From: Eledone cirrhosa
Taxonomy: Eukaryota
Direction of reading: 5' to 3'
DNA: 64,000 nt
NCBI GenBank assembly: GCA_964016885.1
Contig: OZ024740.1
Coordinates: forward strand, 5,890,001-5,954,000
Part shown: in pieces, positions 4,192-34,568 of the stretch
How positions within the stretch are numbered: the first letter of the stretch is position 1
How the letters are laid out: each line of letters starts with the position of its first letter
Made by a program: the position numbers and the translations under genes
The notes under the pieces: generated by a model
Told to the model about the DNA's origin: nothing
The model's database searches: none
Seen by the model: only the letters and a program-made list of their open reading frames with translations

Positions 4192-4485
4192 CTTTACCTT
4201 TCATCCTTACGGGATCGATAAAATAAAGTACCAGTAATACACTGGGTATTTGCTGGCCTTGTGCTTAACGTAGAAACAATTATTAAGATGAAGAATAGGG
4301 TGATGGATTGGCAGTATCGGTAGAGGGTTGGACGCCATGCTTTGCAGCAAAGAGTTACGACCCTTTATGGTCTGAGTTCAAATGCCGCTGAGGTAACTTT
4401 GCCTTTCATCCTTACGGGGTCGATAAAATAAAGTACCAGTAATACACTTGTGCCGAAAGTAGAAACAAATATTAAGATGAAGAAT
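4192..4485 (+). mobile_element. Two adjacent copies (one 5'-truncated, one near full) of a tRNA-derived SINE
   Basis: B-box-like gagttcaaatgcc; core actttgcctttcatccttacggggtcgataaaataaagtaccagtaat; tail gtagaaacaa. The second copy (~4298-4469) is bracketed by the direct repeat tattaagatgaagaat (TSD-like). Confidence 0.8.
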
Positions 4486-4870: not shown

Positions 4871-4908
<38 letters not shown>

Positions 4909-5157
4909 GGATAAATGAAACGTAATTTCATTTCTCACTCTTAGTACGGCTGTTACTTAAATATAAGTATATATACGTACATACATATATGTATACAGAC
5001 GTACAGTATTATGTATATATATACATACATGCACACATATATATATGTACGTATGGGTTTACCGAACATTTATTATAATGCTCAGTTTGTTTGTAAACAA
5101 ACAGCCCGAATTAAGCCGTACAGTGTTTAGCAACCATCGTTGCCCTTTTGTTCAACA

Positions 5158-5226
5158 CTGACAAAGGAACGATGTACTAGTTTCAAGCTTATTAGCTATC
5201 ATCAGCAACGTATACCTTCCTGCCAG
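5158..5226 (-). ncRNA. Type I minimal hammerhead ribozyme motif, inverted copy
   Basis: Minus strand reads ctggcaggaaggtatacgttg-CTGATGA-t-agct-aata-agct-t-GAAAC-ta-GTA-catcgttcctttgtcag. It differs from the + copy at the free core position N7 (U vs C) and has one stem I mismatch. Confidence 0.72.
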
Positions 5227-5518
5227 ATGATTGAACGTCTGAAAGTATATACTTTCCTTATGCATATTAACGGCTGAGCTGTCTTATTTGCATATCGAGT
5301 GAGTTAGTCGGCCGGGTGCACCGAAAACGATAAATGGATAAATGAAACAAAATTTCATTTCTCACTCTTAGTACAGCTGTTACTTAAATATAAGTATATA
5401 TACGTACATACATATATGTATACAGACGTACAGTATTATGTATATATATATACATACATTCATTCCTTTGTCAGTTAATATGCATAAGGAAAGTATATAC
5501 TTTCAGACGTTCAATCAT

Positions 5519-5587
5519 CTGGCAAGAAGGTATTCGATGCTGACGATAGCTAATAAGCTTGAAACTAGTACATCGTTCCTTTGTCAG
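5519..5587 (+). ncRNA. Type I minimal hammerhead ribozyme motif (canonical core)
   Basis: Stem I CGAUG(5535-5539)/CAUCG(5571-5575); core CUGACGA (5540-5546); stem II AGCU-AAUA-AGCU framed by U/U; GAAA (5561-5564); stem III AC-UA-GU (palindrome ACUAGU); cleavage triplet GUA (cut after 5570). Distal stem I extension 5519-5530 pairs with 5578-5587. Confidence 0.8.
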
Positions 5588-5970
5588 TGTTGAACAAAAG
5601 GGCAACGATGGTTGCTAAACACTGTACGGCTTAATTCGGGCTGTTTGTTTACAAACAAACCGAGCATGATAATAAATGTTCGGTAAACCCATACGTACAT
5701 ATATATATATGTGTGTGCATGTATGTATATATATACGTAATACTGTACGTCTGTATACATATATGTATGTACGTATATATACTTATATATATATACATAT
5801 ATATGTATAGAAATAATTTCTATAAGACTATGATTTCATATGAATGAAACAGTTCTAGTCATGTAGAAATTGTGTCTATACATAATAAAGATGCCTATGC
5901 TCTATGAATGTATTGAGTACCTTTTTTAACTGTGATTACTCTCTGACACAACTCTGGAACCTACATATTA

Positions 5971-7829: not shown

Positions 7830-7960
7830 GGTTCTACTTTTGGCACAAGGCCAGCAATTATCCCAGTGCATTACTGGTACTTTATTTTACTGACCCTGTA
7901 ATAATTGTTTCTACTTTTGTTTGGCACAAGGCCAGCAATTACCCAGTGCATTATTGGTAC
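7830..7960 (-). mobile_element. Two 3' fragments of the same SINE, reverse orientation
   Basis: ttctacttt(...)ggcacaaggccagcaatta(t)cccagtgcatta(c/t)tggtac is the reverse complement of the SINE 3' half. Confidence 0.7.
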
Positions 7961-8067
7961 CGCTCTTAAGCATGTAATAATAATTCTGTGGCCAAAACAC
8001 ACTCAATATCTCTCCATAAGTATATCTCCTATAATATAATTATGTACGATTTCTTTCCTCATTACAG

Positions 8068-8229
8068 TCTGATGTCTGAGAAGCCAAGAGGAACATATGA
8101 AGCCGAGGTATCGGTAGTTGAAATCTACAACAATGACATACGGGATCTCCTTAGTAAGGACTTCAGGATCAAACATGACTTGGTCACTTGTCCAGATGGA
8201 TCACTCAGTCTTCCTACTGTCACATTCAG
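8068..8229 (+). CDS. Internal exon of a kinesin motor-domain gene (kinesin-14 family, most similar to KIF25-like proteins)
   Basis: Translates (x)LMSEKPRGTYEAEVSVVEIYNNDIRDLLSKDFRIKHDLVTCPDGSLSLPTVTF(R), containing the kinesin V-S-x-x-E-I-Y-N-x-x-I-x-D-L-L motif; the YNNDI variant is what I recall for KIF25. Flanked by the polypyrimidine acceptor tttctttcctcattacAG (AG 8066-8067) and donor GTTAGT (8230-8235). 162 bp, phase 2-2. Confidence 0.88.
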
Positions 8230-8486
8230 GTTAGTTCTAACATTATTATAAAAACTACCTTCCATCCCTGCCCAACCAGCATTAATATCAACTCCACCCT
8301 CCACCAAGCACCAGTACCACCAACTTCCCCTCCACCAACCACCAACCACCAGTACCAGTAAGATACCAGCAAATAAGGAAGCCTCAAACACAGCATTTCT
8401 CAACCTTTTTACTCTTGTGGAACTCTTGAAATAGTTTCCTTGAAATGTCTCAGAGAACCATAAATATTATTATATACCATTATATA

Positions 8487-9147
8487 TGGATTGGTAGTAT
8501 CGGTAGAGGGTCGGACGTCATGCTTCCCAGCATAGTTACGTCCCTTTACGATCTGAGTACAAATCCCGCCGAGGTTGACTTTGCCTTTCATCCTTATGGG
8601 GTCGATAAAATAAAGTACCAGTAATGCACTGGGTAATTGCTGGCCTTGTGCCTAAAGTAGAAACAATTATATACCATTATTATATACCATTATGTCGGAC
8701 ACCATGCTTTGACGCATAGAGTTACGGCCCTTGCCATTCTGAGTTCAAATCCCGCTGAGGTTAACTTTGCCTTTCATCCTTACGGAGTCGATAAAATACA
8801 GTACCAGTAATGCACTGGGTAATTGCTGGCCTTGTGCCTAAAGTAGAAACAATTATATACCATTATACACCACTATTATATACCATTATATGCCACTATA
8901 TACCACTATTATATACAATTATATACCATTATATACTATTATATAATGGTATATAATAGGGCGGTGGATTGGCAGTATCGGTAGAAGGTCGGACGCTATG
9001 TTTTCCAGCATAGTTACGTCCCTTTACGATCTGAGTTCAAATCCCGCCGAGGTTGACTTTGCCTTTCATCCTTACGGGGTCGATAAAATAAAGTACCAGT
9101 AATGCACTGGGTAATTGCTGGCCTTGTGCCTAAAGTAGAAACAATTA
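8487..9147 (+). mobile_element. Three SINE copies in tandem (~8487-8670, ~8694-8855, ~8960-9147) separated by tataccattat repeats
   Basis: The two fuller copies start tggattgg(c/t)agtatcggtaga (A-box-like); all three carry gagt(t/a)caaatcccgc (B-box-like), the gcctttcatcctta..gg..tcgataaaata core and the gtagaaacaattat end. Confidence 0.85.
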
Positions 9148-11835: not shown

Positions 11836-12707
11836 GGACCACACGTCCAAGATGGAGGCTGCAAAGCTTGCAGCATTGAGGCTGACGTTCACCACCTCCG
11901 ACTTGGCCAAGTTGACTTGGAGGCTGATTCCCGCCAGGGCAGGAACCACCGATTGAAGGTCATGCCAGACCGTCCGTACGGGCCCGCCCAACATAGCATC
12001 TTACAGATACCAAATGTTGAGAGGAGCCGTGATACTCCGGGCGATGTGGTCAATACCAAGGGCGAACAGGAGGGGTCCCAAAGGGTCGTCCTGTTGGACC
12101 CCAGTAGCGAAGGGTATGACCGTATCAGCAGCTAGGAGCATGCTCGGGGCTCCATATGACAGGTAGGCCAGCGTGTAGGCAGAGGGGTCTCGGCTGAGGC
12201 AGACCTCAAGCAGATGATCCCGGCGTAAAGAGTTAAAGGCATTCCTCATGTCAAGCTTGACAATGAGGTACCTGGAGTCCCTGGATGCCAGTACTGATGG
12301 GCAGCTGCTGAAGAACTGCCTGATTGCATGAGCGGCCCCCTCACAGCCACCGGACACGCCGACACCCAGTTGCACCAGACTAAATTCCTCACCCAGTTCG
12401 TGTGTGACGGATTTGCAGATCACCTTGGAAGCCAGCCTCTGGAAGACATTGCCCACAGCAATGGAGCGTATGCCACCCTCTTTCTTCCTGAGAGCGGTGA
12501 TGCTGGCCGAAAAAAAGAGGCACCATGAATGAGCCTATTGGTGAACGCCACAATTGCACTCAGAAGGCGGCGCCCGGCCTCAGCAGAGAGGAGGGATGTC
12601 AACTCCTTGAGGTGGTCTGGTTGGACACCATCAACAGCTCCGCAGCTGCTAGCTGGGAAGGACCTGATGGCGGACATGATATCTGCATCAGTAGCCACAA
12701 GGAGTAT
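11836..12707 (-). pseudogene. Decayed reverse-transcriptase fragment of a CRE-clade-like (RLE-type) non-LTR retrotransposon
   Basis: Pieces in shifted frames: [93 protein letters not shown] (catalytic YLDD destroyed by TAA), ISLQVNLAKSEV. These motifs fit CRE-type RTs. Confidence 0.85.
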
Positions 12708-12718
12708 GTTTCATCACT

Positions 12719-12900
<182 letters not shown>

Positions 12901-12920
12901 AAGTAGTAACACAACAGTTA

Positions 12921-12987
12921 GTTCACTATGCCGAGAACAATTGTTTCACCTTAGCGGATCTTCAACTCGGACTGGTCATGGTTAAAC
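12921..12987 (-). ncRNA. Inverted copy of the hammerhead-like motif
   Basis: Mirror arm of the palindrome. On the minus strand the proximal stem I is fully Watson-Crick (CCGAG/CUCGG), with the same core and the same stems II and III. Confidence 0.58.
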
Positions 12988-12997
12988 GGAACAGTCC

Positions 12998-13064
12998 GTT
13001 TAACCATGACCAGTCTGAGTTGAAGATCCGCTAAGGTGAAACAATTGTTCTCGGTATGGTGAAC
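12998..13064 (+). ncRNA. Type I minimal hammerhead-like motif (C3U core variant)
   Basis: Stem I CUGAG(13015-13019)/CUCGG(13050-13054), extended by GUUUAACCAUG/UAUGGUGAAC beyond a 6-nt bulge; core UUGAAGA; stem II U-CC-GCUAA-GG-U; GAAA; stem III AC-AAUU-GU (palindrome ACAAUUGU); triplet GUU. Confidence 0.6.
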
Positions 13065-13145
13065 TAACTGTTGTGTTACTACTTCTACCAAACTTGTCCC
13101 GTGGACTGAGTGCTCTACCACTACGGATATTACCTTCCAGTGTTC

Positions 13146-13223
<78 letters not shown>

Positions 13224-14768: not shown

Positions 14769-17700
14769 CAACCACATTTACAGTATGTGCTGGATGTTTT
14801 TTGTTGTGACTACTACACAACCACATTTACAGTGTGTGCTGGGTGCTTTTTGTCGTGACTACTACACAACCACATTTACAGTGTGTGCTGGATGTTTTTT
14901 GTTGTGACTCCTACACAACCACATTTACAGTGTGTGCTGGATGTTTTTTGTTGTGACTACTACACAACCACATTTACAGTGTGTGCTGGAAGTTTTTTGT
15001 CGTGACTACTACACAACCACATTTACAGTGTGTGCTGGGTGCTTTTTGTTGTGACTACTACACAACCACATTTACAGTGTGTGCTGGATGTTTTTTGTTG
15101 TGACTACTACACAACCACATTTACAGTGTGTGCTGGATGTTTTTTGTTGTGACTCCTACACAACCACATTTACAGTGTGTGCTGGATGTTTTTTGTTGTG
15201 ACTCCTACACAACCACATTTACAGTGTGTGCTGGATGTTTTTTGTTGTGACTCCTACACAACCACATTTACAGTGTGTGCTGGATGTTTTTTGTTGTGAC
15301 TCCTACACAACCACATTTACAGTGTGTGCTGGGTGCTTTTTGTTGTGACTACTACACAACCACATTTACAGTGTGTGCTGGGTGCTTTTTGTCGTGACAA
15401 CTACACAACCACATTTACAGTGTGTGCTGGGTGCTTTTTGTTGTGACTACTACACAACCACATTTACAGTGTGTGCTGGAAGTTTTTTGTCGTGACTCCT
15501 ACACAACCACATTTACAGTGTGTGCTGGGTGCTTTTCGTTGTGACTACTACACAACCACATTTACAGTGTGTGCTGGGTGTTTTTTCTTGTGACTACTAC
15601 ACAACCACATTTACAGTGTGTGCTGGATGTTTTTTGTTGTGATACCTACACAACCACATTTACAGTGTGTGCTGGATGTTTTTTGTTGTGACTCCTACAC
15701 AACCACATTTACAGTGAGTGCTGGGTGCTTTTTGTTGTGACTCCTACACAACCACATTTACAGTGTGTGCTGGGTGCTTTTTGTCATGGCACCTACACAA
15801 CCACATTTACAGTGTGTGCTGGATGTTTTTTGTTGTGACTCCTACACAACCAGATTTACAGTGTGTGCTGGGTGCTTTTTGTTGTGGCTCCTACACAACC
15901 ACATTTACAGTGTGTGCTGCGTGCTTTTTGTCATGGCACCTACACAACCACATTTACAGTGTGTGCTGGGTGCTTTTTGTTATGACTCCTACACAACCAC
16001 ATTTACAGTGTGTGCTGGATGTTTTTTGTTGCGACTCCTACACAACCACATTTACAGTGTGTGCTGGGTGCTTTTTTGTTGTGACTACTACACAACCACA
16101 TTTACAGTGTGTGCTGGGTGCTTTTTGTTGTGACTACTACACAACCACATTTACAGTGTGTGCTGGGTGCTTTTTTGTTGTGACTACTACACAACCACAT
16201 TTACAGTGTGTGCTGGGTGCTTTTTGTTGTGACTACTACACAACCACATTTACAGTGTGTGCTGGGTGCTTTTTTGTTGTGACTACTACACAACCACATT
16301 TACAGTGTGTGCTGGGTGCTTTTTGTTGTGACTACTAGACAACCACATTTACAGTGTGTGCTGGATGTTTTTTGCTGTGACTCCTACACAACCACATTTA
16401 CAGTGTGTGCTGGATGTTTTTTGCTGTGACTCCTACACAACCATATTTACAGTGTGTGCTGGATGTTTTTTGCTGTGACTACTACATAACCACATTTACA
16501 GTGTGTGCTGGGTGTTTTTTGTTGTTACTACTACACAACCAGATTTACAGTGTGTGCTGGATGTTTTTTGCTGTGACTACTACACAACCACATTTACAGT
16601 GAGTGCTGGATGTTTTTGTTGTGACTCCTACACAACCACATTTACAGTGTGTGCTGGGTGTTTTTCGTTGTGACTACTACACAACCATATTTACAGTGTG
16701 TGCTGGATGTTTTTTGTTGTGACTCCTACACAACCACATTTACAGTGTGTGCTGGGTGCTTTTTGTTGTGACTCCTACACAACCACATTTACAGTGTGTG
16801 CTGGGTGCTTTTTGTTGTGACTACTACACAACCACATTTACAGTGTGTGCTGGGTGCTTTTTTGTTGTGACTACTACACAACCACATTTACAGTGTGTGC
16901 TGGGTGCTTTTTTGTTGTGACTCCTACACAAACACATTTACAGTGTGTGCTGGATGTTTTTTGTTGTGACTCCTACACAACCACATTTACAGTGTGTGCT
17001 GGGTGCTTTTTTGTTGTGACTCCTACGCAACCACATTTACAGTGTGTGCTGGGTGCTTTTTGTTGTGACTACTACACAACCACATTTACAGTGTGTGCTG
17101 GGTGCTTTTTTGTTGTGACTCCTACACGACCACATTTACAGTGTGTGCTGGGTGCTTTTTTGTTGTGACTCCTACACAACCACATTTACAGTGTGTGCTG
17201 GGTGCTTTTTGTTGTGACTACTACACAACCACATTTACAGTGTGTGCTGGGTGCTTTTTTGTTGTGACTCCTACACAACCACATTTACAGTGTGTGCTGG
17301 GTGCTTTTTTGTTGTGACTCCTACACAACCACATTTACAGTGTGTGATGGGTGCTTTTTGTTGACACCTACACAACCACATTTACAGTGTGTGCTGGGTG
17401 TTTTTTGTTGTGACTACTACACAACCACATTTAAAGTGTGTGCTGGGTGCTGTTTGTTGTGACTACTACACAACCACATTTACAGTGTGTGCTGGGTGCT
17501 TTTTGTCGTGACTACTACACAACCACATTTACAGTGTGTGCTGGATGTTTTTTATTGTGACTACTACACAACCACATTTACAGTGTGTGCTGGATGTTTT
17601 TTGTCGTGACTACTACACAACCACATTTACAGTGTGTGCTGGGTGCTTTTTGTTGTGACTACTACACAACCACAGTTACAGTGTGTGCTGGGTGCTTTTT

Positions 17701-20700
17701 GTTGTGACTACTACACAACCACATTTACAGTGTGTGCTGGGTGCTTTTTGTCGTGACTACTACACAACCACATTTACAGTGTGTGCTGGGTGCTTTTTGT
17801 CGGGACTACTACACAACCACATTTACAGTGTGTGCTGGGTGCTTTTTGTTGTGACTACTACACAACCACATTTACAGTGTGTGCTGGATGCTTTTTGTTG
17901 TGACTCCTACACAACCACATTTACAGTGTGTGCTGGGTGCTTTTTGTTGTGACTACTACACAACCACATTTACAGTGTGTGCTGGATGTTTTTTGTTATG
18001 ACTCCTACACAACCACATTTACAGTGTGTGCTGGGTGCTTTTTGTTGTGACTCCTACACAACCACATTTACGGTGTGTGCTGGATGTTTTTTGTTGTGAC
18101 TACTACACAACCACATTTACAGTGTGTGCTGGATGTTTTTTGTCGTGACTACTACACAACCACATTTACAGTGTGTGCTGGGTGCTTTTTGTTGTGACTA
18201 CTACACAACCATATTTACAGTGTGTGCTGGATGTTTTTTGCTGTGACTACTACATAACCACATTTACAGTGTGTGCTGGGTGTTTTTTGTTGTTACTACT
18301 ACACAACCAGATTTACAGTGTGTGCTGGATGTTTTTTGCTGTGACTACTACACAACCACATTTACAGTGAGTGCTGGATGTTTTTGTTGTGACTCCTACA
18401 CAACCACATTTACAGTGTGTGCTGGGTGTTTTTCGTTGTGACTACTACACAACCATATTTACAGTGTGTGCTGGATGTTTTTTGTTGTGACTGCTACACA
18501 ACCACATTTACAGTGTGTGCTGGGTGCTTTTTGTTGTGACTCCTACACAACCACATTTACAGTGTGTGCTGGGTGCTTTTTGTTGTGACTACTACACAAC
18601 CACATTTACAGTGTGTGCTGGGTGCTTTTTGTTGTGACTCCTACACAACCACATTTACAGTGTGTGCTGGGTGCTTTTTGTTGTGACTACTACACAACCA
18701 CATTTACAGTGTGTGCTGGGTGCTTTTTTTGTTGTGACTCCTACAAAAGCACATTTACAGTGTGTGCTGGGTGCTTTTTTGTTGTGACTACTACACAACC
18801 ACATTTACAGTGTGTGCTGGGTGCTTTTGGTTGTGACTACTACACAACCACATTTACAGTGTGTGCTGGGTGCTTTTTGTTGTGACTCCTACACAACCAC
18901 ATTTACAGTGTGTGCTGGGTGCTTTTTTGTTGTGACTACTACACAACCACATTTACAGTGTGTGCTGGGTGCTTTTTTGTTGTGACTCCTACACAAACAC
19001 ATTTACAGTGTGTGCTGGATGTTTTTTGTTGTGACTCCTACACAACCACATTTACAGTGTGTGCTGGGTGCTTTTTTGTTGTGACTCCTACGCAACCACA
19101 TTTACAGTGTGTGCTGGGTGCTTTTTGTTGTGACTACTACACAACCACATTTACAGTGTGTGCTGGGTGCTTTTTTGTTGTGACTCCTACACGACCACAT
19201 TTACAGTGTGTGCTGGGTGCTTTTTTGTTGTGACTCCTACACAACCACATTTACAGTGTGTGCTGGGTGCTTTTTGTTGTGACTACTACACAACCACATT
19301 TACAGTGTGTGCTGGGTGCTTTTTTGTTGTGACTCCTACACAACCACATTTACAGTGTGTGCTGGGTGCTTTTTTGTTGTGACTCCTACACAACCACATT
19401 TACAGTGTGTGATGGGTGCTTTTTGTTGACACCTACACAACCACATTTACAGTGTGTGCTGGGTGTTTTTTGTTGTGACTACTACACAACCACATTTAAA
19501 GTGTGTGCTGGGTGCTGTTTGTTGTGACTACTACACAACCACATTTACAGTGTGTGCTGGGTGCTTTTTGTCGTGACTACTACACAACCACATTTACAGT
19601 GTGTGCTGGATGTTTTTTATTGTGACTACTACACAACCACATTTACAGTGTGTGCTGGATGTTTTTTGTCGTGACTACTACACAACCACATTTACAGTGT
19701 GTGCTGGGTGCTTTTTGTTGTGACTACTACACAACCACAGTTACAGTGTGTGCTGGGTGCTTTTTGTTGTGACTACTACACAACCACATTTACAGTGTGT
19801 GCTGGGTGCTTTTTGTCGTGACTACTACACAACCACATTTACAGTGTGTGCTGGGTGCTTTTTGTCGGGACTACTACACAACCACATTTACAGTGTGTGC
19901 TGGGTGCTTTTTGTTGTGACTACTACACAACCACATTTACAGTGTGTGCTGGATGCTTTTTGTTGTGACTCCTACACAACCACATTTACAGTGTGTGCTG
20001 GGTGCTTTTTGTTGTGACTACTACACAACCACATTTACAGTGTGTGCTGGATGTTTTTTGTTATGACTCCTACACAACCACATTTACAGTGTGTGCTGGG
20101 TGCTTTTTGTTGTGACTCCTACACAACCACATTTACGGTGTGTGCTGGATGTTTTTTGTTGTGACTACTACACAACCACATTTACAGTGTGTGCTGGATG
20201 TTTTTTGTCGTGACTACTACACAACCACATTTACAGTGTGTGCTGGGTGCTTTTTGTTGTGACTACTACACAACCACATTTACAGTGTGTGCTGGGTGCT
20301 TTTTGTCGTGACTACTACACAACCACATTTACAGTGTGTGCTGGGTGCTTTTTGTTGTGACTCCTACACAACCACATTTACAGTGTGTGCTGGGTGCTTT
20401 TTGTTGTGACTACTACACAACCACATTTACAGTGTGTGCTGGGTGCTTTTTGTTGTGACTACTACACAACCACATTTACAGTGTGTGCTGGGTGTTTTTT
20501 GTTGTGACTACTACACAATCACATTTACAGTGTGTGCTGGATGTTTTTTGTTGTGACACCTACATAACCACATTTACAGTGTGTGCTGGATGTTTTTGTT
20601 GTGACTCCTACACAACCATATTTACAGTGTGTGCTGGATGTGTTTTGTTGTGACTCCTACACAACCACATTTACAGTGTGTGCTGGGTGCTTTTTGTTGT

Positions 20701-23700
20701 GACTCCTACACAACCACATTTACAGTGTGTGTTGTGTGCTTTTTGTTGTGACTCCTACACAACCACATTTACAGTGTGTGCTGGGTGCTTTTTGTTGTGA
20801 TTCCTACACAACCACATTTACAGTGTTTGCTGGGTGCTTTTTGTCGTGACTACTACACAACCACATTTACAGTGTGTGCTGGGTGCTTTTTGTTGTGACT
20901 CCTACACAACCACATTTACAGTGTGTGCTGGATGCTTTTTGTTGTGACTACTACACAACCACATTTACAGTGTGTGCTGGATGTTTTTGTTGTGACTCCT
21001 ACACAACCACATTTACAGTGTGTGCTGGATGTTTTTTGTTGTGACTCCTACACAACCACATTTACAGTGTGTGCTGGATGTTTTTTGTTGTGACTCCTAC
21101 ACAACCACATTTACAGTGTGTGCTGGATGTTTTTTGTTGTGACTCCTACACAACCACATTTACAGTGTGTGCTGGATGCTTTTTGTTGTGACTCCTACAC
21201 AACCACATTTACAGTGTGTGCTGGATGTTTTTGTTGTGACTCCTACACAACCACATTTACAGTGTGTGCTGGATGTTTTTTGTTGTGACTCCTACACAAC
21301 CACATTTACAGTGTGTGCTGGATGTTTTTTTGTTGTGACTCCTACACAACCACATTTACAGTGTGTGCTGGGTGCTTTTTGTTGTGACTCCTACACAACC
21401 ACATTTACAGTGTGTGCTGGATGTTTTTTTGTTGTGACTCCTACACAACCACATTTACAGTGTGTGCTGGGTGCTTTTTGTTGTGACTCCTACACAACCA
21501 CATTTACAGTGTGTGCTGGGTGCTTTTTGTTGTGACTCCTACACAACCACATTTACAGTGTGTGCTGGATGTTTTTTGTTGCGACTACTACACAACCACA
21601 TTTACAGTGTGTGCTGGGTGCTTTTTGTTGTGACTCCTACACAACCACATTTACAGTGTGTGCTGGGTGCTTTTTGTTGTGACTCCTACACAACCACATT
21701 TACAGTGTGTGCTGGGTGCTTTTTGTTGTGACTCCTACACAACCACATTTACAGTGTGTGCTGGATGTTTTTTGTTGTGACTCCTACACAACCACATTTA
21801 CAGTGTGTGCTGGATATTTTTTGTTGCGACTACTACACAACCACATTTACAGTGTGTGCTGGGTGCTTTTTGTTGTGACTCCTACACAACCACATTTACA
21901 GTGTGTGCTGGGTGTTTTTTGTTGTGACTCCTACACAACCACATTTACAGTGTGTGCTGGATGTTTTTTGTTGCGACTCCTACACAACCACATTTACAGT
22001 GTGTGCTGGATGCTTTTTGTTGTGACTACTACACAACCACATTTACAGTGTGTGCTGGATGTTTTTGTTGTGACTCCTACACAACCACATTTACAGTGTG
22101 TGCTGGATGTTTTTTGTTGTGACTCCTACACAACCACATTTACAGTGTGTGCTGGATGTTTTTTGTTGTGACTCCTACACAACCACATTTACAGTGTGTG
22201 CTGGATGTTTTTTGTTGTGACTCCTACACAACCACATTTACAGTGTGTGCTGGATGCTTTTTGTTGTGACTCCTACACAACCACATTTACAGTGTGTGCT
22301 GGATGTTTTTGTTGTGACTCCTACACAACCACATTTACAGTGTGTGCTGGATGTTTTTTGTTGTGACTCCTACACAACCACATTTACAGTGTGTGCTGGA
22401 TGTTTTTTTGTTGTGACTCCTACACAACCACATTTACAGTGTGTGCTGGGTGCTTTTTGTTGTGACTCCTACACAACCACATTTACAGTGTGTGCTGGGT
22501 GCTTTTTGTTGTGACTACTACACAACCACAGTTACAGTGTGTGCTGGGTGCTTTTTGTTGTGACTACTACACAACCACATTTACAGTGTGTGCTGGGTGC
22601 TTTTTGTCGTGACTACTACACAACCACATTTACAGTGTGTGCTGGGTGCTTTTTGTCGGGACTACTACACAACCACATTTACAGTGTGTGCTGGGTGCTT
22701 TTTGTTGTGACTACTACACAACCACATTTACAGTGTGTGCTGGATGCTTTTTGTTGTGACTCCTACACAACCACATTTACAGTGTGTGCTGGGTGCTTTT
22801 TGTTGTGACTACTACACAACCACATTTACAGTGTGTGCTGGATGTTTTTTGTTATGACTCCTACACAACCACATTTACAGTGTGTGCTGGGTGCTTTTTG
22901 TTGTGACTACTACACAACCACATTTACAGTGTGTGCTGGGTGCTTTTTGTCGTGACTACTACACAACCACATTTACAGTGTGTGCTGGGTGCTTTTTGTT
23001 GTGACTACTACACAACCACATTTACAGTGTGTGCTGGGTGCTTTTTGTTGTGACTCCTACACAACCACATTTACAGTGTGTGCTGGGTGTTTTTTGTTGT
23101 GACTACTACACAATCACATTTACAGTGTGTGCTGGATGTTTTTTGTTGTGACACCTACATAACCACATTTACAGTGTGTGCTGGATGTTTTTGTTGTGAC
23201 TCCTACACAACCATATTTACAGTGTGTGCTGGATGTTTTTTGTTGTGACTCCTACACAACCACATTTACAGTGTGTGCTGGGTGCTTTTTGTTGTGACTC
23301 CTACACAACCACATTTACAGTGTGTGTTGTGTGCTTTTTGTTGTGACTCCTACACAACCACATTTACAGTGTGTGCTGGGTGCTTTTTGTTGTGATTCCT
23401 ACACAACCACATTTACAGTGTTTGCTGGGTGCTTTTTGTCGTGACTACTACACAACCACATTTACAGTGTGTGCTGGGTGCTTTTTGTTGTGACTCCTAC
23501 ACAACCACATTTACAGTGTGTGCTGGATGTTTTTTGTTGCGACTCCTACACAACCACATTTACAGTGTTTGCTGGATGCTTTTTGTTGTGACTACTACAC
23601 AACCACATTTACAGTGTGTGCTGGATGTTTTTGTTGTGACTCCTACACAACCACATTTACAGTGTGTGCTGGATGTTTTTTGTTGTGACTCCTACACAAC

Positions 23701-26700
23701 CACATTTACAGTGTGTGCTGGATGTTTTTTGTTGTGACTCCTACACAACCACATTTACAGTGTGTGCTGGATGTTTTTTGTTGTGACTCCTACACAACCA
23801 CATTTACAGTGTGTGCTGGATGCTTTTTGTTGTGACTCCTACACAACCACATTTACAGTGTGTGCTGGATGTTTTTGTTGTGACTCCTACACAACCACAT
23901 TTACAGTGTGTGCTGGATGTTTTTTGTTGTGACTCCTACACAACCACATTTACAGTGTGTGCTGGATGTTTTTTTGTTGTGACTCCTACACAACCACATT
24001 TACAGTGTGTGCTGGGTGCTTTTTGTTGTGACTCCTACACAACCAGATTTACAGTGTGTGCTGGGTGCTTTTTGTTGTGACTCCTACACAACCACATTTA
24101 CAGCGTGTGCTGGATGTTTTTTGTTGCGACTACTACACAACCACATTTACAGTGTGTGCTGGGTGCTTTTTTGTTGTGACTCCTACACAACCACATTTAC
24201 AGTGTGTGCTGGATATTTTTTGTTGCGACTACTACACAACCACATTTACAGTGTGTGCTGGGTGCTTTTTGTTGTGACTCCTACACAACCACATTTACAG
24301 TGTGTGCTGGGTGTTTTTTGTTGTGACTCCTACACAACCACATTTACAGTGTGTGCTGGATGTTTTTTGTTGCGACTCCTACACAACCACATTTACAGTG
24401 TGTGCTGGATGCTTTTTGTTGTGACTACTACACAACCACATTTACAGTGTGTGCTGGATGTTTTTGTTGTGACTCCTACACAACCACATTTACAGTGTGT
24501 GCTGGATGTTTTTTGTTGTGACTCCTACACAACCACATTTACAGTGTGTGCTGGATGTTTTTTGTTGTGACTCCTACACAACCACATTTACAGTGTGTGC
24601 TGGATGGTTTTTGTTGTGACTCCTACACAACCACATTTACAGTGTGTGCTGGATGCTTTTTGTTGTGACTCCTACACAACCACATTTACAGTGTGTGCTG
24701 GATGTTTTTGTTGTGACTCCTACACAACCACATTTACAGTGTGTGCTGGATGTTTTTTGTTGTGACTCCTACACAACCACATTTACAGTGTGTGCTGGAT
24801 GTTTTTTTGTTGTGACTCCTACACAACCACATTTACAGTGTGTGCTGGGTGCTTTTTGTTGTGACTCCTACACAACCACATTTACAGTGTGTGCTGGGTG
24901 CTTTTTGTTGTGACTACTACACAACCACAGTTACAGTGTGTGCTGGGTGCTTTTTGTTGTGACTACTACACAACCACATTTACAGTGTGTGCTGGGTGCT
25001 TTTTGTCGTGACTACTACACAACCACATTTACAGTGTGTGCTGGGTGCTTTTTGTTGTGACTACTACACAACCACATTTACAGTGTGTGCTGGGTGCTTT
25101 TTGTCGTGACTACTACACAACCACATTTACAGTGTGTGCTGGGTGCTTTTTGTTGTGACTACTACACAACCACATTTACAGTGTGTGCTGGGTGCTTTTT
25201 GTTGTGACTACTACACAACCACATTTACAGTGTGTGCTGGATGTTTTTGTTGTGACTCCTACACAACCACATTTACAGTGTGTGCTGGATGTTTTTTGTT
25301 GTGACTCCTACACAACCACATTTACAGTGTGTGCTGGATGTTTTTTGTTGTGACTCCTACACAACCACATTTACAGTGTGTGCTGGATGTTTTTTGTTGT
25401 GACTCCTACACAACCACATTTACAGTGTGTGCTGGATGCTTTTTGTTGTGACTCCTACACAACCACATTTACAGTGTGTGCTGGATGTTTTTGTTGTGAC
25501 TCCTACACAACCACATTTACAGTGTGTGCTGGATGTTTTTTGTTGTGACTCCTACACAACCACATTTACAGTGTGTGCTGGATGTTTTTTTGTTGCGACT
25601 ACTACACAACCACATTTACAGTGTGTGCTGGGTGCTTTTTGTTGTGACTCCTACACAACCACATTTACAGTGTGTGCTGGGTGCTTTTTGTTGTGACTAC
25701 TACACAACCACAGTTACAGTGTGTGCTGGGTGCTTTTTGTTGTGACTCCTACACAACCACATTTACAGTGTGTGCTGGATGTTTTTTGTTGTGACTCCTA
25801 CACAACCACATTTACAGTGTGTGCTGGATATTTTTTGTTGCGACTACTACACAACCACATTTACAGTGTGTGCTGGGTGCTTTTTGTTGTGACTCCTACA
25901 CAACCACATTTACAGTGTGTGCTGGGTGTTTTTTGTTGTGACTCCTACACAACCACATTTACAGTGTGTGCTGGATGTTTTTTGTTGCGACTCCTACACA
26001 ACCACATTTACAGTGTGTGCTGGATGCTTTTTGTTATGACTCCTACACAACCACATTTACAGTGTGTGCTGGATGTTTTTGTTGTGACTCCTACACAACC
26101 ACATTTACGGTGTGTGCTGGATGTTTTTTGTTGTGACTACTACACAACCACATTTACAGTGTGTGCTGGATGTTTTTTGTCGTGACTACTACACAACCAC
26201 ATTTACAGTGTGTGCTGGGTGCTTTTTGTTGTGACTACTACACAACCACATTTACAGTGTGTGCTGGATGCTTTTTGTTGTGACTCCTACACAACCACAT
26301 TTACAGTGTGTGCTGGGTGCTTTTTGTTGTGACTACTACACAACCACATTTACAGTGTGTGCTGGATGTTTTTTGTTGTGACTCCTACACAACCACATTT
26401 ACAGTGTGTGCTGGGTGTTTTTTGTTGTGACTACTACACAATCACATTTACAGTGTGTGCTGGATGTTTTTTGTTGTGACACCTACATAACCACATTTAC
26501 AGTGTGTGCTGGATGTTTTTGTTGTGACTCCTACACAACCATATTTACAGTGTGTGCTGGATGTTTTTTGTTGTGACTCCTACACAACCACATTTACAGT
26601 GTGTGCTGGGTGCTTTTTGTTGTGACTCCTACACAACCACATTTACAGTGTGTGTTGTGTGCTTTTTGTTGTGACACCTACACAACCACATTTACAGTGT

Positions 26701-29700
26701 GTGCTGGGTGCTTTTTGTTGTGATTCCTACACAACCACATTTACAGTGTTTGCTGGGTGCTTTTTGTCGTGACTACTACACAACCACATTTACAGTGTGT
26801 GCTGGGTGCTTTTTGTTGTGACTCCTACACAACCACATTTACAGTGTGTGCTGGATGTTTTTTGTTGCGACTCCTACACAACCACATTTACAGTGTGTGC
26901 TGGATGCTTTTTGTTGTGACTACTACACAACCACATTTACAGTGTGTGCTGGATGTTTTTGTTGTGACTCCTACACAACCACATTTACAGTGTGTGCTGG
27001 ATGTTTTTTGTTGTGACTCCTACACAACCACATTTACAGTGTGTGCTGGATGTTTTTTGTTGTGACTCCTACACAACCACATTTACAGTGTGTGCTGGAT
27101 GTTTTTTGTTGTGACTCCTACACAACCACATTTACAGTGTGTGCTGGATGCTTTTTGTTGTGACTCCTACACAACCACATTTACAGTGTGTGCTGGATGT
27201 TTTTGTTGTGACTCCTACACAACCACATTTACAGTGTGTGCTGGATGTTTTTTGTTGTGACTCCTACACAACCACATTTACAGTGTGTGCTGGATGTTTT
27301 TTTGTTGTGACTCCTACACAACCACATTTACAGTGTGTGCTGGGTGCTTTTTGTTGTGACTCCTACACAACCACATTTACAGTGTGTGCTGGGTGCTTTT
27401 TGTTGTGACTCCTACACAACCACATTTACAGTGTGTGCTGGATGTTTTTTGTTGCGACTACTACACAACCACATTTACAGTGTGTGCTGGGTGCTTTTTG
27501 TTGTGACTCCTACACAACCACATTTACAGTGTGTGCTGGGTGCTTTTTGTTGTGACTCCTACACAACCACATTTACAGTGTGTGCTGGGTGCTTTTTGTT
27601 GTGACTCCTACACAACCACATTTACAGTGTGTGCTGGATGTTTTTTGTTGTGACTCCTACACAACCACATTTACAGTGTGTGCTGGATATTTTTTGTTGC
27701 GACTACTACACAACCACATTTACAGTGTGTGCTGGGTGCTTTTTGTTGTGACTCCTACACAACCACATTTACAGTGTGTGCTGGGTGTTTTTTGTTGTGA
27801 CTCCTACACAACCACATTTACAGTGTGTGCTGGATGTTTTTTGTTGCGACTCCTACACAACCACATTTACAGTGTGTGCTGGATGCTTTTTGTTGTGACT
27901 ACTACACAACCACATTTACAGTGTGTGCTGGATGTTTTTGTTGTGACTCCTACACAACCACATTTACAGTGTGTGCTGGATGTTTTTTGTTGTGACTCCT
28001 ACACAACCACATTTACAGTGTGTGCTGGATGTTTTTTGTTGTGACTCCTACACAACCACATTTACAGTGTGTGCTGGATGTTTTTTGTTGTGACTCCTAC
28101 ACAACCACATTTACAGTGTGTGCTGGATGCTTTTTGTTGTGACTCCTACACAACCACATTTACAGTGTGTGCTGGATGTTTTTGTTGTGACTCCTACACA
28201 ACCACATTTACAGTGTGTGCTGGATGTTTTTTGTTGTGACTCCTACACAACCACATTTACAGTGTGTGCTGGATGTTTTTTTGTTGTGACTCCTACACAA
28301 CCACATTTACAGTGTGTGCTGGGTGCTTTTTGTTGTGACTCCTACACAACCACATTTACAGTGTGTGCTGGGTGCTTTTTGTTGTGACTCCTACACAACC
28401 ACATTTACAGTGTGTGCTGGATGTTTTTTGTTGCGACTACTACACAACCACATTTACAGTGTGTGCTGGGTGCTTTTTGTTGTGACTCCTACACAACCAC
28501 ATTTACAGTGTGTGCTGGGTGCTTTTTGTTGTGACTCCTAAACAACCACATTTACAGTGTGTGCTGGATGTTTTTTGTTGTGACTCCTACACAACCACAT
28601 TTACAGTGTGTGCTGGATATTTTTTGTTGCGACTACTACACAACCACATTTACAGTGTGTGCTGGGTGCTTTTTGTTGTGACTCCTACACAACCACATTT
28701 ACAGTGTGTGCTGGGTGTTTTTTGTTGTGACTCCTACACAACCACATTTACAGTGTGTGCTGGATGTTTTTTGTTGCGACTCCTACACAACCACATTTAC
28801 AGTGTGTGCTGGATGCTTTTTGTTGTGACTACTACACAACCACATTTACAGTGTGTGCTGGATGTTTTTGTTGTGACTCCTACACAACCACATTTACAGT
28901 GTGTGCTGGATGTTTTTTGTTGTGACTCCTACACAACCACATTTACAGTGTGTGCTAGATGTTTTTTGTTGTGACTCCTACACAACCACATTTACAGTGT
29001 GTGCTGGATGTTTTTTGTTGTGACTCCTACACAACCACATTTACAGTGTGTGCTGGATGCTTTTTGTTGTGACTCCTACACAACCACATTTACAGTGTGT
29101 GCTGGATGTTTTTGTTGTGACTCCTACACAACCACATTTACAGTGTGTGCTGGATGTTTTTTGTTGTGACTCCTACACAACCACATTTACAGTGTGTGCT
29201 GGATGTTTTTTTGTTGTGACTCCTACACAACCACATTTACAGTGTGTGCTGGGTGCTTTTTGTTGTGACTCCTACACAACCACATTTACAGTGTGTGCTG
29301 GGTGCTTTTTGTTGTGACTCCTACACAACCACATTTACAGTGTGTGCTGGATGTTTTTTGTTGCGACTACTACACAACCACATTTACAGTGTGTGCTGGG
29401 TGCTTTTTGTTGTGACTCCTACACAACCACATTTACAGTGTGTGCTGGGTGCTTTTTGTTGTGACTCCTACACAACCACATTTACAGTGTGTGCTGGGTG
29501 CTTTTTGTTGTGACTCCTACACAACCACATTTACAGTGTGTGCTGGATGTTTTTTGTTGTGACTCCTACACAACCACATTTACAGTGTGTGCTGGATATT
29601 TTTTGTTGCGACTACTACACAACCACATTTACAGTGTGTGCTGGGTGCTTTTTGTTGTGACTCCTACACAACCACATTTACAGTGTGTGCTGGATGTTTT

Positions 29701-32700
29701 TTGTTGTGACTCCTACACAACCACATTTACAGTGTGTGCTGGATGTTTTTTGTTGTGACTACTACACAACCACATTTACAGTGTGTGCTGGGTGTTTTTT
29801 GTTGTGACTACTACACAACCACATTTACAGTGTGTGCTGGATGCTTTTTGTTGTGACTCCTACACAACCACATTTACAGTGTGTGCTGGATGTTTTTTGT
29901 TGTGACTACTACACAACCACATTTACAGTGTGTGCTGGGTGTTTTTTGTTGTGACTACTACACAACCACATTTACAGTGTGTGCTGGATGTTTTTTGTTG
30001 TGACTCCTACACAATCACATTTACAGTGTGTGCTGGATGTTTTTTGTTGTGACTCCTACACAACCACATTTACAGTGTGTGCTGGATGTTTTTTGTTGTG
30101 ACTCCTACACAACCACATTTACAGTGTGTGCTGGATGTTTTTTGTTGTGACTCCTACACAACCACATTTACAGTGTGTGCTGGGTGCTTTTTGTTGTGAC
30201 TCCTACACAACCACATTTACAATGTGTGCTGGTTGCTTTTTGTTGTGACTCCTACACAACCACATTTACAGTGTGTGCTGGGTGCTTTTTTGTTGTGACT
30301 CCTACACAACCACATTTACAGTGTGTGATGGGTGCTTTTTGTTGTGACCCCTACACAACCACATTTACAGTGTGTGCTGGGTGTTTTTTGTTGTGACTAC
30401 TACACAACCACATTTACAGTGTGTGCTGGGTGCTTTTTGTTGTGACTACTACACAACCACATTTACAGTGTGTGCTGGGTGCTTTTTGTTGTGACTACTA
30501 CACAACCACATTTACAGTGTATGCTGGGTGCTTTTTGTTGTGACTACTACACAACCACATTTACAGTGTGTGCTGGGTGCTTTTTGTCGTGACTACTACA
30601 CAACCACATTTACAGTGTGTGCTGGGTGCTTTTTGTCGGGACTACTACACAACCACATTTACAGTGTGTGCTGGGTGCTTTTTGTTGTGACTACTACACA
30701 ACCACATTTACAGTGTGTGCTGGGTGTTTTTTGTTGTGACTCCTACACAACCACATTTACAGTGTGTGCTGGGTGCTTTTTGTTGTGACTACTACACAAC
30801 CACATTTACAGTGTATGCTGGGTGCTTTTTGTTGTGACTACTACACAACCACATTTACAGTGTGTGCTGGGTGCTTTTTGTCGTGACTACTACACAACCA
30901 CATTTACAGTGTGTGCTGGGTGCTTTTTGTTGTGACTACTACACAACCACATTTACAGTGTGTGCTGGATGCTTTTTGTTGTGACTCCTACACAACCACA
31001 TTTACAGTGTGTGCTGGGTGCTTTTTGTTGTGACTACTACACAACCACATTTACAGTGTGTGCTGGGTGTTTTTTGTTTTGACTACTACACAACCACATT
31101 TACAGTGTGTGCTGGGTGCTTTTTGTCGTGACTACTACACAACCACATTTACAGTGTGTGCTGGGTGCTTTTTGTTGTGACTCCTACACAACCACATTTA
31201 CAGTGTGTGCTGGATGCTTTTTGTTGTGACTCCTACACAACCACATTTACAGTGTGTGCTGGATGTTTTTGTTGTGACTCCTACACAACCACATTTACAG
31301 TGTGTGCTGGATGTTTTTTGTTGTGACTCCTACACAACCACATTTACAGTGTGTGCTGGATGTTTTTTTGTTGTGACTCCTACACAACCACATTTACAGT
31401 GTGTGCTGGGTGCTTTTTGTTGTGACTCCTACACAACCACATTTACAGTGTGTGCTGGGTGCTTTTTGTTGTGACTCCTACACAACCACATTTACAGTGT
31501 GTGCTGGATGTTTTTTGTTGCGACTACTACACAACCACATTTACAGTGTGTGCTGGGTGCTTTTTGTTGTGACTCCTACACAACCACATTTACAGTGTGT
31601 GCTGGGTGCTTTTTGTTGTGACTCCTACATAACCACATTTACAGTGTGTGCTGGGTGCTTTTTGTTGTGACTCCTACACAACCACATTTACAGTGTGTGC
31701 TGGATGTTTTTTGTTGTGACTCCTACACAACCACATTTACAGTGTGTGCTGGATATTTTTTGTTGCGACTACTACACAACCACATTTACAGTGTGTGCTG
31801 GGTGCTTTTTGTTGTGACTCCTACACAACCACATTTACAGTGTGTGCTGGATGTTTTTTGTTGTGACTCCTACACAACCACATTTACAGTGTGTGCTGGA
31901 TGTTTTTTGTTGTGACTACTACACAACCACATTTACAGTGTGTGCTGGGTGTTTTTTGTTGTGACTACTACACAACCACATTTACAGTGTGTGCTGGATG
32001 CTTTTTGTTGTGACTCCTACACAACCACATTTACAGTGTGTGCTGGATGTTTTTTGTTGTGACTACTACACAACCACATTTACAGTGTGTGCTGGGTGTT
32101 TTTTGTTGTGACTACTACACAACCACATTTACAGTGTGTGCTGGATGTTTTTTGTTGTGACTCCTACACAATCACATTTACAGTGTGTGCTGGATGTTTT
32201 TTGTTGTGACTCCTACACAACCACATTTACAGTGTGTGCTGGATGTTTTTTGTTGTGACTCCTACACAACCACATTTACAGTGTGTGCTGGGTGTTTTTT
32301 GTTGTGACTCCTACACAACCACATTTACAGTGTGTGCTGGGTGCTTTTTGTTGTGACTCCTACACAACCACATTTACAATGTGTGCTGGGTGCTTTTTGT
32401 TGTGACTCCTACACAACCACATTTACAGTGTGTGCTGGGTGCTTTTTTGTTGTGACTCCTACACAACCACATTTACAGTGTGTGATGGGTGCTTTTTGTT
32501 GTGACTCCTACACAACCACATTTACAGTGTGTGCTGGGTGTTTTTTGTTGTGACTCCTACACAACCACATTTACAGTGTGTGCTGGATGTTTTTTGTTGT
32601 GACTACTACACAACCACATTTACAGTGTGTGCTGGGTGTTTTTTGTTGTGACTACTACACAACCACATTTACAGTGTGTGCTGGATGCTTTTTGTTGTGA

Positions 32701-34568
32701 CTCCTACACAACCACATTTACAGTGTGTGCTGGATGTTTTTTGTTGTGACTACTACACAACCACATTTACAGTGTGTGCTGGGTGTTTTTTGTTGTGACT
32801 ACTACACAACCACATTTACAGTGTGTGCTGGATGTTTTTTGTTGTGACTCCTACACAATCACATTTACAGTGTGTGCTGGATGTTTTTTGTTGTGACTCC
32901 TACACAACCACATTTACAGTGTGTGCTGGATGTTTTTTGTTGTGACTCCTACACAACCACATTTACAGTGTGTGCTGGGTGTTTTTTGTTGTGACTCCTA
33001 CACAACCACATTTACAGTGTGTGCTGGGTGCTTTTTGTTGTGACTCCTACACAACCACATTTACAATGTGTGCTGGGTGCTTTTTGTTGTGACTCCTACA
33101 CAACCACATTTACAGTGTGTGCTGGGTGCTTTTTTGTTGTGACTCCTACACAACCACATTTACAGTGTGTGATGGGTGCTTTTTGTTGTGACTCCTACAC
33201 AACCACATTTACAGTGTGTGCTGGGTGTTTTTTGTTGTGACTACTACACAACCACATTTACAGTGTGTGCTGGGTGCTTTTTGTTGTGACTACTACACAA
33301 CCACATTTACAGTGTGTGCTGGGTGCTTTTTGTTGTGACTACTACACAACCACATTTACAGTGTATGCTGGGTGCTTTTTGTTGTGACTACTACACAACC
33401 ACATTTACAGTGTGTGCTGGGTGCTTTTTGTCGTGACTACTACACAACCACATTTACAGTGTGTGCTGGGTGCTTTTTGTCGGGACTACTACACAACCAC
33501 ATTTACAGTGTGTGCTGGGTGCTTTTTGTTGTGACTACTACACAACCACATTTACAGTGTGTGCTGGGTGTTTTTGTTGTGACTCCTACACAACCACATT
33601 TACAGTGTGTGCTGGGTGCTTTTTGTTGTGACTACTACACAACCACATTTACAGTGTGTGCTGGGTGCTTTTTGTCGTGACTACTACACAACCACATTTA
33701 CAGTGTGTGCTGGGTGCTTTTTGTCGGGACTACTACACAACCACATTTACAGTGTGTGCTGGGTGCTTTTTGTTGTGACTACTACACAACCACATTTACA
33801 GTGTGTGCTGGGTGTTTTTTGTTGTGACTCCTACACAACCACATTTACAGTGTGTGCTGGGTGCTTTTTGTTGTGACTACTACACAACCACATTTACAGT
33901 GTGTGCTGGATGCTTTTTGTTGTGACTCCTACACAACCACATTTACAGTGTGTGCTGGGTGCTTTTTGTTGTGACTACTACACAACCACATTTACAGTGT
34001 GTGCTGGGTGTTTTTTGTTTTGACTACTACACAACCACATTTACAGTGTGTGCTGGGTGCTTTTTGTCGTGACTACTACACAACCACATTTACAGTGTGT
34101 GCTGGGTGCTTTTTGTTGTGACTCCTACACAACCACATTTACAGTGTGTGGTGGGTGCTTTTTGTTGTGACTACTACACAACCACATTTACAGTGTGTGC
34201 TGGATGTTTTTTGTCGTGACTACTACACAACCACATTTACAGTGTGTGCTGGATTCTTTTTGTTGTGACTCCTACACAACCACATTTACAGTGTGTGCTG
34301 GGTGCTTTTTGTTGTGACTACTACACAACCACATTTACAGTGTGTGCTGGATGCTTTTTGTTGTGACTCCTACACAACCACATTTACAGTGTATGCTGGG
34401 TGCTTTTTGTTGTGACTACTACACAACCACATTTACAGTGTGTGCTGGGTGCTTTTTGTTGTGACTCCTGCACAACCATTTTACAGTGTGTGCTGGGTGC
34501 TTTTTGTTGTGACTCCTACACAACCATTTTAAAGTGTGTGGTAGGTGTTTTTGTCATGACTCCTACAT
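14769..34568. repeat. 49-bp satellite, ~400 units, ~19.8 kb
   Basis: Consensus accacatttacagtgtgtgctgg(g/a)tg(c/t)tttttgttgtgact(c/a)ctacaca; unit length varies mostly 48-50 through the T run. Confidence 0.98.

Follow-up and report, generated by a model that had tools for sequence, protein, structure and literature searches.

A hammerhead-bearing palindrome in Eledone cirrhosa as a probable head-to-head pair of truncated Hydra-clade Penelope-like element 3' ends

INTRODUCTION

Inverted 5'-truncated copies, one-sided tails, hammerhead motifs, and (TA)n targeting have already been described for Penelope-like elements (PLEs), including those of the Hydra clade, in the accounts of insertion structure given by Craig et al. 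(2021; PMC8557442) and Arkhipova et al. (2013; PMC3846280). The clade description in PMC8557442 defines Hydra elements as short, with RWK and DKT motifs, a CxCx5C linker, and CxxC plus CxH but no CCHH motif, and with a hammerhead and (TA)n targets; that defining paper includes fewer than 30 families and lists Penelope-13_HM with a 5'-truncated inverted copy. Published readings of such inverted copies include self-priming (PMC3846280) and endonuclease resolution of an intermediate (PMC8557442), and how PLEs make inverted copies and tails is named in PMC8557442 as an open task. For a Poseidon PLE protein, the in vitro results of Frangieh et al. (2024; PMC11167929) describe cutting and extension of both target strands, initiation at two sites within the RNA between which the tail lies, and the use of uncleaved RNA. 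The hammerheads of animal PLEs were reported to cleave poorly in vitro and to require dimers in the survey of Cervera and De la Pena (PMC4209133), in which hammerhead pairs on opposite strands, 100 to 700 bp apart, were also noted.

Here, we describe a palindrome in a 64,000-nucleotide stretch of the Eledone cirrhosa genome (the window). The original prediction, made from this DNA, saw in it two back-to-back hammerhead-like motifs belonging to a second PLE or retrozyme family. We put the probability at roughly 85% that the locus is a pair of 5'-truncated 3' ends of a Hydra-clade PLE, placed head to head in (TA)n and likely arising from one insertion event.

RESULTS

Structure of the palindrome. 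The predicted palindrome is real: 87 of 90 positions pair between the arms (12901 to 12990 and 12995 to 13084), with mismatches at 12927/13058, 12930/13055, and 12969/13016, and the segment from 12901 to 13148 has a predicted folding energy of -177.6 kcal/mol (z, -26). Two of its proposed boundaries needed revision (Table 1). The four nucleotides described as a spacer between the arms are left-arm sequence, and the element, first given as ending at 13084, runs on through a 65-nt tail to 13149. In terms of the two fixed 3' ends of the family described below, one arm ends at A and the other, which carries the 65-nt tail, at B (an A+B pair). The public contigs, all from one sample, contain loose ends matching 13087 and 13149 with TA repeats next to them; none of the contigs in the three sets from that sample spanned the palindrome. 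In comparison with published PLE inverted insertions, a target-site duplication is unreadable here, the flanks being microsatellites.

The full-length copies at loci L047 and L205 show that the tail runs on into the ORF leader. The bulged hairpin at the start of the tail has the same predicted fold in all eight full-length copies compared, and no clear twin of it was seen behind end B in these eight by folding only, which is a weak test. As originally stated, the palindrome shares no similarity with a 5-kb element lying elsewhere in the window (best window match, E = 0.53).

Table 1. Features of the palindrome and its flanks. Coordinates are those of the window; element positions are numbered so that C3 of the hammerhead core is position 3.
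Feature	Coordinates	Strand	Basis
Left (TA)n target microsatellite with embedded (CA)n run	12718..12900	.	Repeat annotation; TA adjoins most family arms
Inverted tail-less arm, 5'-truncated element 3' end, -26 to +67, fixed end A	12901..12994	-	
Left-arm type I hammerhead, from the core up to the predicted cut; U3, G8, GUU	12936..12965	-	Descriptor search
Head-to-head junction, blunt, without insert; tail-less arm exceeds tailed arm by 4 nt	12994..12995	.	Sister copies compared
Direct tailed arm, -22 to +132, fixed end B	12995..13149	+	Family 3'-end clusters; public contigs
Right-arm type I hammerhead, from the core up to the predicted cut; U3, G8, GUU	13020..13049	+	Descriptor search
PLE "tail," 65 nt, bounded by two fixed 3' ends	13085..13149	+	3' ends at +65 to +71 and +129 to +135; loci L047 and L205
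Predicted bulged 8-bp hairpin at tail start	13091..13110	+	Fold prediction
Right flank, (CT)n then (TA)n	13150..13220	.	Repeat annotation

Several other features were seen in the window. A fragment of another reverse transcriptase (RT; 11850 to 12717, minus strand; RVT_1, E = 2.5e-6) directly abuts the left TA repeat. A kinesin motor-domain exon was found at 8072 to 8230 on the plus strand (PF00225; E = 5e-5, below the curated cutoff); the palindrome may sit in an intron of a kinesin-domain gene, and RNA made there would form a 90-bp double strand. Two satellites occupy 14769 to 34567 (49-bp unit, 404 copies) and 41291 to 63997 (28-bp unit, 811 copies), and a short dispersed SINE-like repeat is present in several copies (4250 to 4480, 7830 to 7970, and 8490 to 9145).

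Hammerhead motifs. A type I hammerhead descriptor that permitted U3 matched three motifs in the window, at 13020 to 13049 (+), 12965 to 12936 (-), and 5540 to 5570 (+), the last of which is unrelated to the palindrome motifs; 200 dinucleotide shuffles of the 17.7-kb nonsatellite part of the window gave a mean of 0.01. An Rfam scan identified no hammerhead at E values of ≤1, just matches to miRNA-type hairpins under the gathering score. As first described, each arm contains one type I fold with a UUGAAGA core, a CC/GG stem II of 2 bp, GAAA, the palindromic stem III ACAAUUGU, and a GUU triplet. The family matches the hammerhead core consensus (C3UGANGA...GAAA...UH with three stems), from which the window locus deviates at position 3.

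C3U is not a family feature: C3 is the family state, with 700 exact matches compared to 17 with U3 in the same context, and it was found in 116 of 129 sample arms. The window locus belongs to a sub-lineage with 22 matches; U3 is present on both of its arms and absent from all 10 other members read, which have C3. A U3 subfamily was considered and rejected, as 15 of the 17 U3 matches (13 besides the window's two) were examined and span several subfamily backgrounds, and only one (L006) of nine other U3 pairs with position 3 covered in both arms has U3 on both. Nor is this the U3-A8 variant of Schistosoma PLEs reported in PMC4209133, since G8 is retained. The GUU triplet had been taken as a weakness peculiar to this copy, and it is family-wide (173 of 176 arms) and also occurs in 10 of the 25 published Hydra-clade hammerheads tabulated in PMC8557442.

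The three arm differences do all fall within stem I strands. All 10 sister copies have C at 13016, T at 13055, and G at 13058, and the last two states also occur in each of 14 copies taken without selection; these are the family states. The pairing gained by the change at 12930 is therefore derived and not ancestral. The right arm has one change, at a CpG (13016), and the left arm has two, one of which improves pairing.

Among the genomic copies collected, conservation of the stems was found and covariation was not. Pairing is present in 91% to 100% of arms in stem II, in stem III, and at the innermost three positions of stem I, figures to be read with positions +16 to +59 having been partly fixed by the search patterns. 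No compensatory double change was detected within the family, where divergence and hence power are low. Subfamily changes affect N7, loop II, and the outer 5' strand of stem I. Single copies decay alike in the core (36/765; 4.7%) and the tail (277/5,411; 5.1%), so that the arm differences do not support selection. Together, the stem conservation and the equal decay of core and tail suggest that the hammerhead is under constraint as long as it is in a source element and drifts neutrally once it is part of an inserted stub, or so it looks from the copies compared.

C3U lowers hammerhead activity. The window hammerheads are thus predicted to be inactive, with U3 weakening the core and the arms pairing in read-through RNA, for which a 90-bp hairpin blocking both motifs is predicted. 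As the two motifs are on opposite strands, no tandem dimer is possible within one RNA.

Copy number and coding capacity of the family. In the 3.0-Gb genome, a 27-mer and a 24-mer from the arm had 5,403 and 6,748 exact matches, respectively, and the reversed controls had none. The longer copies include the end of an ORF upstream of the motif, with an RT thumb and a GIY-YIG-type C terminus. A search for Penelope-type ORFs next to the palindrome had been proposed; such an ORF is present in longer genomic copies but not in the window, where tblastn with the family ORF found no fragment. Locus L047 is a complete pLTR-ORF-pLTR unit flanked by TA repeats, and L205 is a partial tandem with a 722-amino-acid open frame and a frameshift near its end. 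In both, the ORF has ~700 codons. Tandem hammerheads are spaced 2,577 to 2,584 bp apart (unit, ~2.58 kb), and the family hammerhead, CUGA(A/G)GA...GAAA...GUU, is located ~170 nt 3' of the stop codon. None of the copies read has a fully intact ORF; even the best of them contains a frameshift near the C terminus. A 732-amino-acid open frame at L206 was rejected as simple repeats fused to a fragment.

A protein search with the ORF retrieved 97 relatives with 34% to 50% identity, only one of which is named ("reverse transcriptase domain"). The domain names used here rest on motifs and alignment, and when the ORF was compared with Pfam and PDB, neither an RT nor a GIY-YIG match was obtained.

Three further observations concern the full-length copies and other hammerheads. 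(i) In L047, no stop interrupts the frame between the tail and the likely start codon, which in L047-like copies is preceded by an in-frame ATG two codons ahead of a TGA. (ii) A short repeated ACCACT...TCTAC motif is present at both fixed ends of full-length copies (e.g., L047, 3885 to 3965, and L205) and is a candidate initiation signal. (iii) Hammerheads of other, unrelated families were seen at L208, L209, and L210 (positions 45 and 514, minus strand), those at L210 forming a 469-bp tandem pair.

Clade placement. The family has a short (<3-kb) unit with a single ORF combining an RT with a GIY-YIG domain at the C terminus, as in the Hydra clade. The L205 frame has RWR at residue 36, with R and not K in the third position, and DKT at residue 112; the family ORF also has YRDD and the linker CSCxKPEAC. 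The pattern CGLC...E...N...CPH surrounds the conserved E and N in three copies (L002, L028, and L047), and no further Cys pair was seen by eye in the endonuclease core. From its first residues, the ORF is colinear with the published Hydra-1_Obim protein in a by-eye comparison. Judged by these motifs and this comparison, the family is most probably a Hydra-clade PLE.

The hammerhead differs from that of Hydra-1_Obim, indicating a separate family. The original phrase "second PLE/retrozyme family" is half right: this is a separate hammerhead-bearing family of the PLE system and not a retrozyme. The family is new and the clade is known, and the window locus is an ordinary decayed stub. The family was not found in the literature searched, to which Repbase and Dfam do not belong. 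In passages of an Octopus vulgaris repeat annotation (PMC13282606), Penelope-like families are named, with mention of neither hammerheads nor Hydra.

Insertion anatomy across copies. From the sites listed first on one contig (C1) in two pattern searches, 120 regions were taken; after removal of 5 duplicates, 115 loci remained. The 3' ends of 185 arms form two clusters, A (+65 to +71) and B (+129 to +135), 65 nt apart, and the same two 3' ends followed by TA repeats were seen in public contigs (one sample, possibly the assembly source). TA repeats occur within 40 nt of the 3' end in 160 of the 185 arms, compared to 19% of control positions. In 28 of the 185 arms, a (CT)n run separates the end of the element from the TA repeat, as it does in the window at 13150 to 13178; it possibly reflects initiation slippage.

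A head-to-head junction was found in 64 of the 115 loci. Of 66 junctions, 62 could be typed, and 56 of these join a tailed to a tail-less arm (A+B), with 4 B+B and 2 A+A (P = 1e-11 versus random pairing). The arms of a pair are concordant at 339 of 358 subfamily sites (500 shuffles: mean, 57%; maximum, 72%) and have 18 rare variants in common, where a mean of 1.5 is expected. Arms generally share variants, and U3 on both window arms is therefore one case of a general pattern.

Of the 56 A+B pairs, 13 have a tail-less arm that exceeds its partner by >10 nt, 22 have a tailed arm that does so, and 21 have arms within 10 nt of each other. Sixteen further regions were chosen for long spacing and contained 11 clean A+B pairs, with the tail-less arm longer in four (by 171, 537, 920, and 20 nt), the tailed arm longer in five, and equal arms in two. 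An A+A pair, a tandem containing a B+B junction, two rearranged loci, and a nonpair made up the other five regions. Long arms pair with long arms (5/7 versus 0/49; P = 5e-6), and the overall rank correlation of arm 5' ends is weak (rho = 0.20; P = 0.14).

Junctions and 5' ends vary from locus to locus, and single arms are common. For 5'-end mapping, 98 arms were selected with a search pattern lying 3' of the cleavage site; 65 of them start between -19 and +29, none starts at the cleavage site (+33), and two start within +30 to +36. Partial tandems (pLTR), inverted 5'-truncated copies, and one-sided tails were all encountered (L047, L205, L240, and L246 to L248).

DISCUSSION

Origin of the paired arms. 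Insertion of the two arms in a single event is likely. The A+B rule, the shared variants, and the fact that either arm can be the longer one favor, we infer, copying from both cut target ends. The behavior of the Poseidon PLE protein in vitro (PMC11167929) speaks for the same route. We lean slightly toward a mechanism in which both ends of the cut target prime at A and B and the two cDNAs are then joined. The GIY-YIG endonuclease of the element would cut both strands of a TA repeat, and each free end would prime reverse transcription on element RNA, probably on the same molecule, one at start A and the other at start B. Both cDNAs would halt just 5' of the hammerhead, with end-to-end joining to follow. 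The U3 would already have been in the template or would have been copied from arm to arm. The hammerhead itself is a part of the parent element's pLTR, where it looks constrained in source elements. That the arms are separate cDNAs of one uncleaved RNA molecule, begun at two fixed starts and end joined, has about an even chance of being correct. The stop of the arms near the hammerhead could reflect either RT stalling or an RNA 5' end at that place, which DNA cannot tell apart.

It is possible, if rather unlikely, that a tailed cDNA instead folds back and copies itself, with the endonuclease resolving the hairpin at end A and with central deletions or conversion following later. Such a snap-back is close to the proposals outlined by Arkhipova et al. 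(PMC3846280) and Craig et al. (PMC8557442), and it accounts for the A+B rule, for rare variants common to the two arms (U3 among them), and for near-equal arms (21 of 56 pairs within 10 nt and 5 of 16 long pairs within 25 nt); alignment overlaps at 20 of 56 junctions also speak for it. However, it predicts that the tailed arm is never shorter, and the tail-less arm exceeds the tailed one in 13 of 56 pairs, in 4 of the 11 long pairs, and, by 4 nt, here, so that later deletions are needed; in addition, ends A and B are also found on single copies and tandems. Palindromes can lose their centers after insertion. Such a loss could give rise to arm asymmetry after a snap-back, just as arm-to-arm conversion could produce shared variants.

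Amplification of a nonautonomous, retrozyme-like miniature as a short hammerhead unit via circular RNA is very improbable. Most arms are indeed short (65 of 98 start at -19 to +29), and retrozymes are derived from PLE pLTRs in the account of bioRxiv 10.64898/2026.07.22.740005. However, 5' ends and junctions change with each locus, no short head-to-tail arrays of a fixed unit were present in the loci read, lengths are continuous up to full-length coding copies, and no arm begins at the cleavage site (0/98 at +33; 2/98 at +30 to +36). The retrozyme part of the original prediction is not supported, as longer copies continue into the RT and GIY-YIG ORF and form pLTR-ORF-pLTR units. A MITE or DNA-transposon TIR with a chance hammerhead look-alike would fit the inverted geometry beside TA dinucleotides but is hardly credible, given that the center is remade at each locus, the tail is on one arm, many copies are single arms, and an RT-endonuclease ORF has this sequence as its 3' untranslated region. 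A DNA transposon with fixed TIRs and a target-site duplication was rejected for its locus-specific junctions and arm lengths and frequent single arms.

The window locus is ordinary, and its value lies in leading to a very abundant Hydra-clade family whose paired arms carry markers bearing on the origin of PLE inverted copies and tails. With its high copy number, the family offers natural junctions by the thousand, marked by subfamily and private variants, on which this model of the PLE inverted-repeat structure can be tested. The data also indicate that the 5' ends of inserted copies are not determined by hammerhead cleavage, in agreement with the in vitro results for Poseidon_Ac in PMC11167929.

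Comparison with known systems. The family resembles the Hydra-clade elements Hydra-1_Obim and Penelope-13_HM, as presented in PMC8557442, in its length of <3 kb, single ORF, RW(K/R), DKT, CxCx5C, and CxxC/CxH motifs, and (TA)n targets; it also shares with the clade a type I hammerhead that lies close to the 3' end, has a palindromic stem III, and in many cases carries GUU. It differs from entries in the same paper in several respects: (i) the hammerhead and pLTR sequences are not those of Hydra-1_Obim; (ii) stem II has 2 bp, compared to 3 to 7 bp in the published Hydra table; (iii) the tail is 65 nt long, compared to 30 to 40 nt; and (iv) there are thousands of copies, whereas the table notes only four copies of Hydra-1_Obim ending at one site.

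The head-to-head inverted 5'-truncated copy with a tail on a single arm is like that of Adineta Pen2 and Pen3 as depicted in PMC3846280 and in the scheme of PMC8557442, although in the window, unlike in the copies shown in PMC3846280, both arms are short stubs without an ORF. From the description of Poseidon_Ac (PAc) of Anolis in PMC11167929, the family shares with that element a pLTR hammerhead followed downstream by a pair of fixed ends with the tail between them, AT-rich targets, and a genome with no sign of cleaved RNA as a template. PAc belongs to another clade, and its ORF begins inside the hammerhead, whereas the likely start in the present family is ~150 nt past the tail.

A type I hammerhead and a connection to PLEs are also properties of the animal non-LTR retrozymes covered in PMC7229834 and bioRxiv 10.64898/2026.07.22.740005. 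Retrozymes are described there as noncoding tandem units of 150 to 450 bp, whereas the present family has a coding 2.58-kb unit that is variably truncated. The 5-kb element in the window (4900 to 5810) has a noncoding unit of ~427 bp with a canonical CUGACGA hammerhead (5540 to 5570) and a GUA triplet. Both tandem and inverted arrangements of it occurred in the 15 loci read, one of which (L223) has a distant Hydra-like ORF fragment nearby. This element fits the description of a retrozyme better than the palindrome family does.
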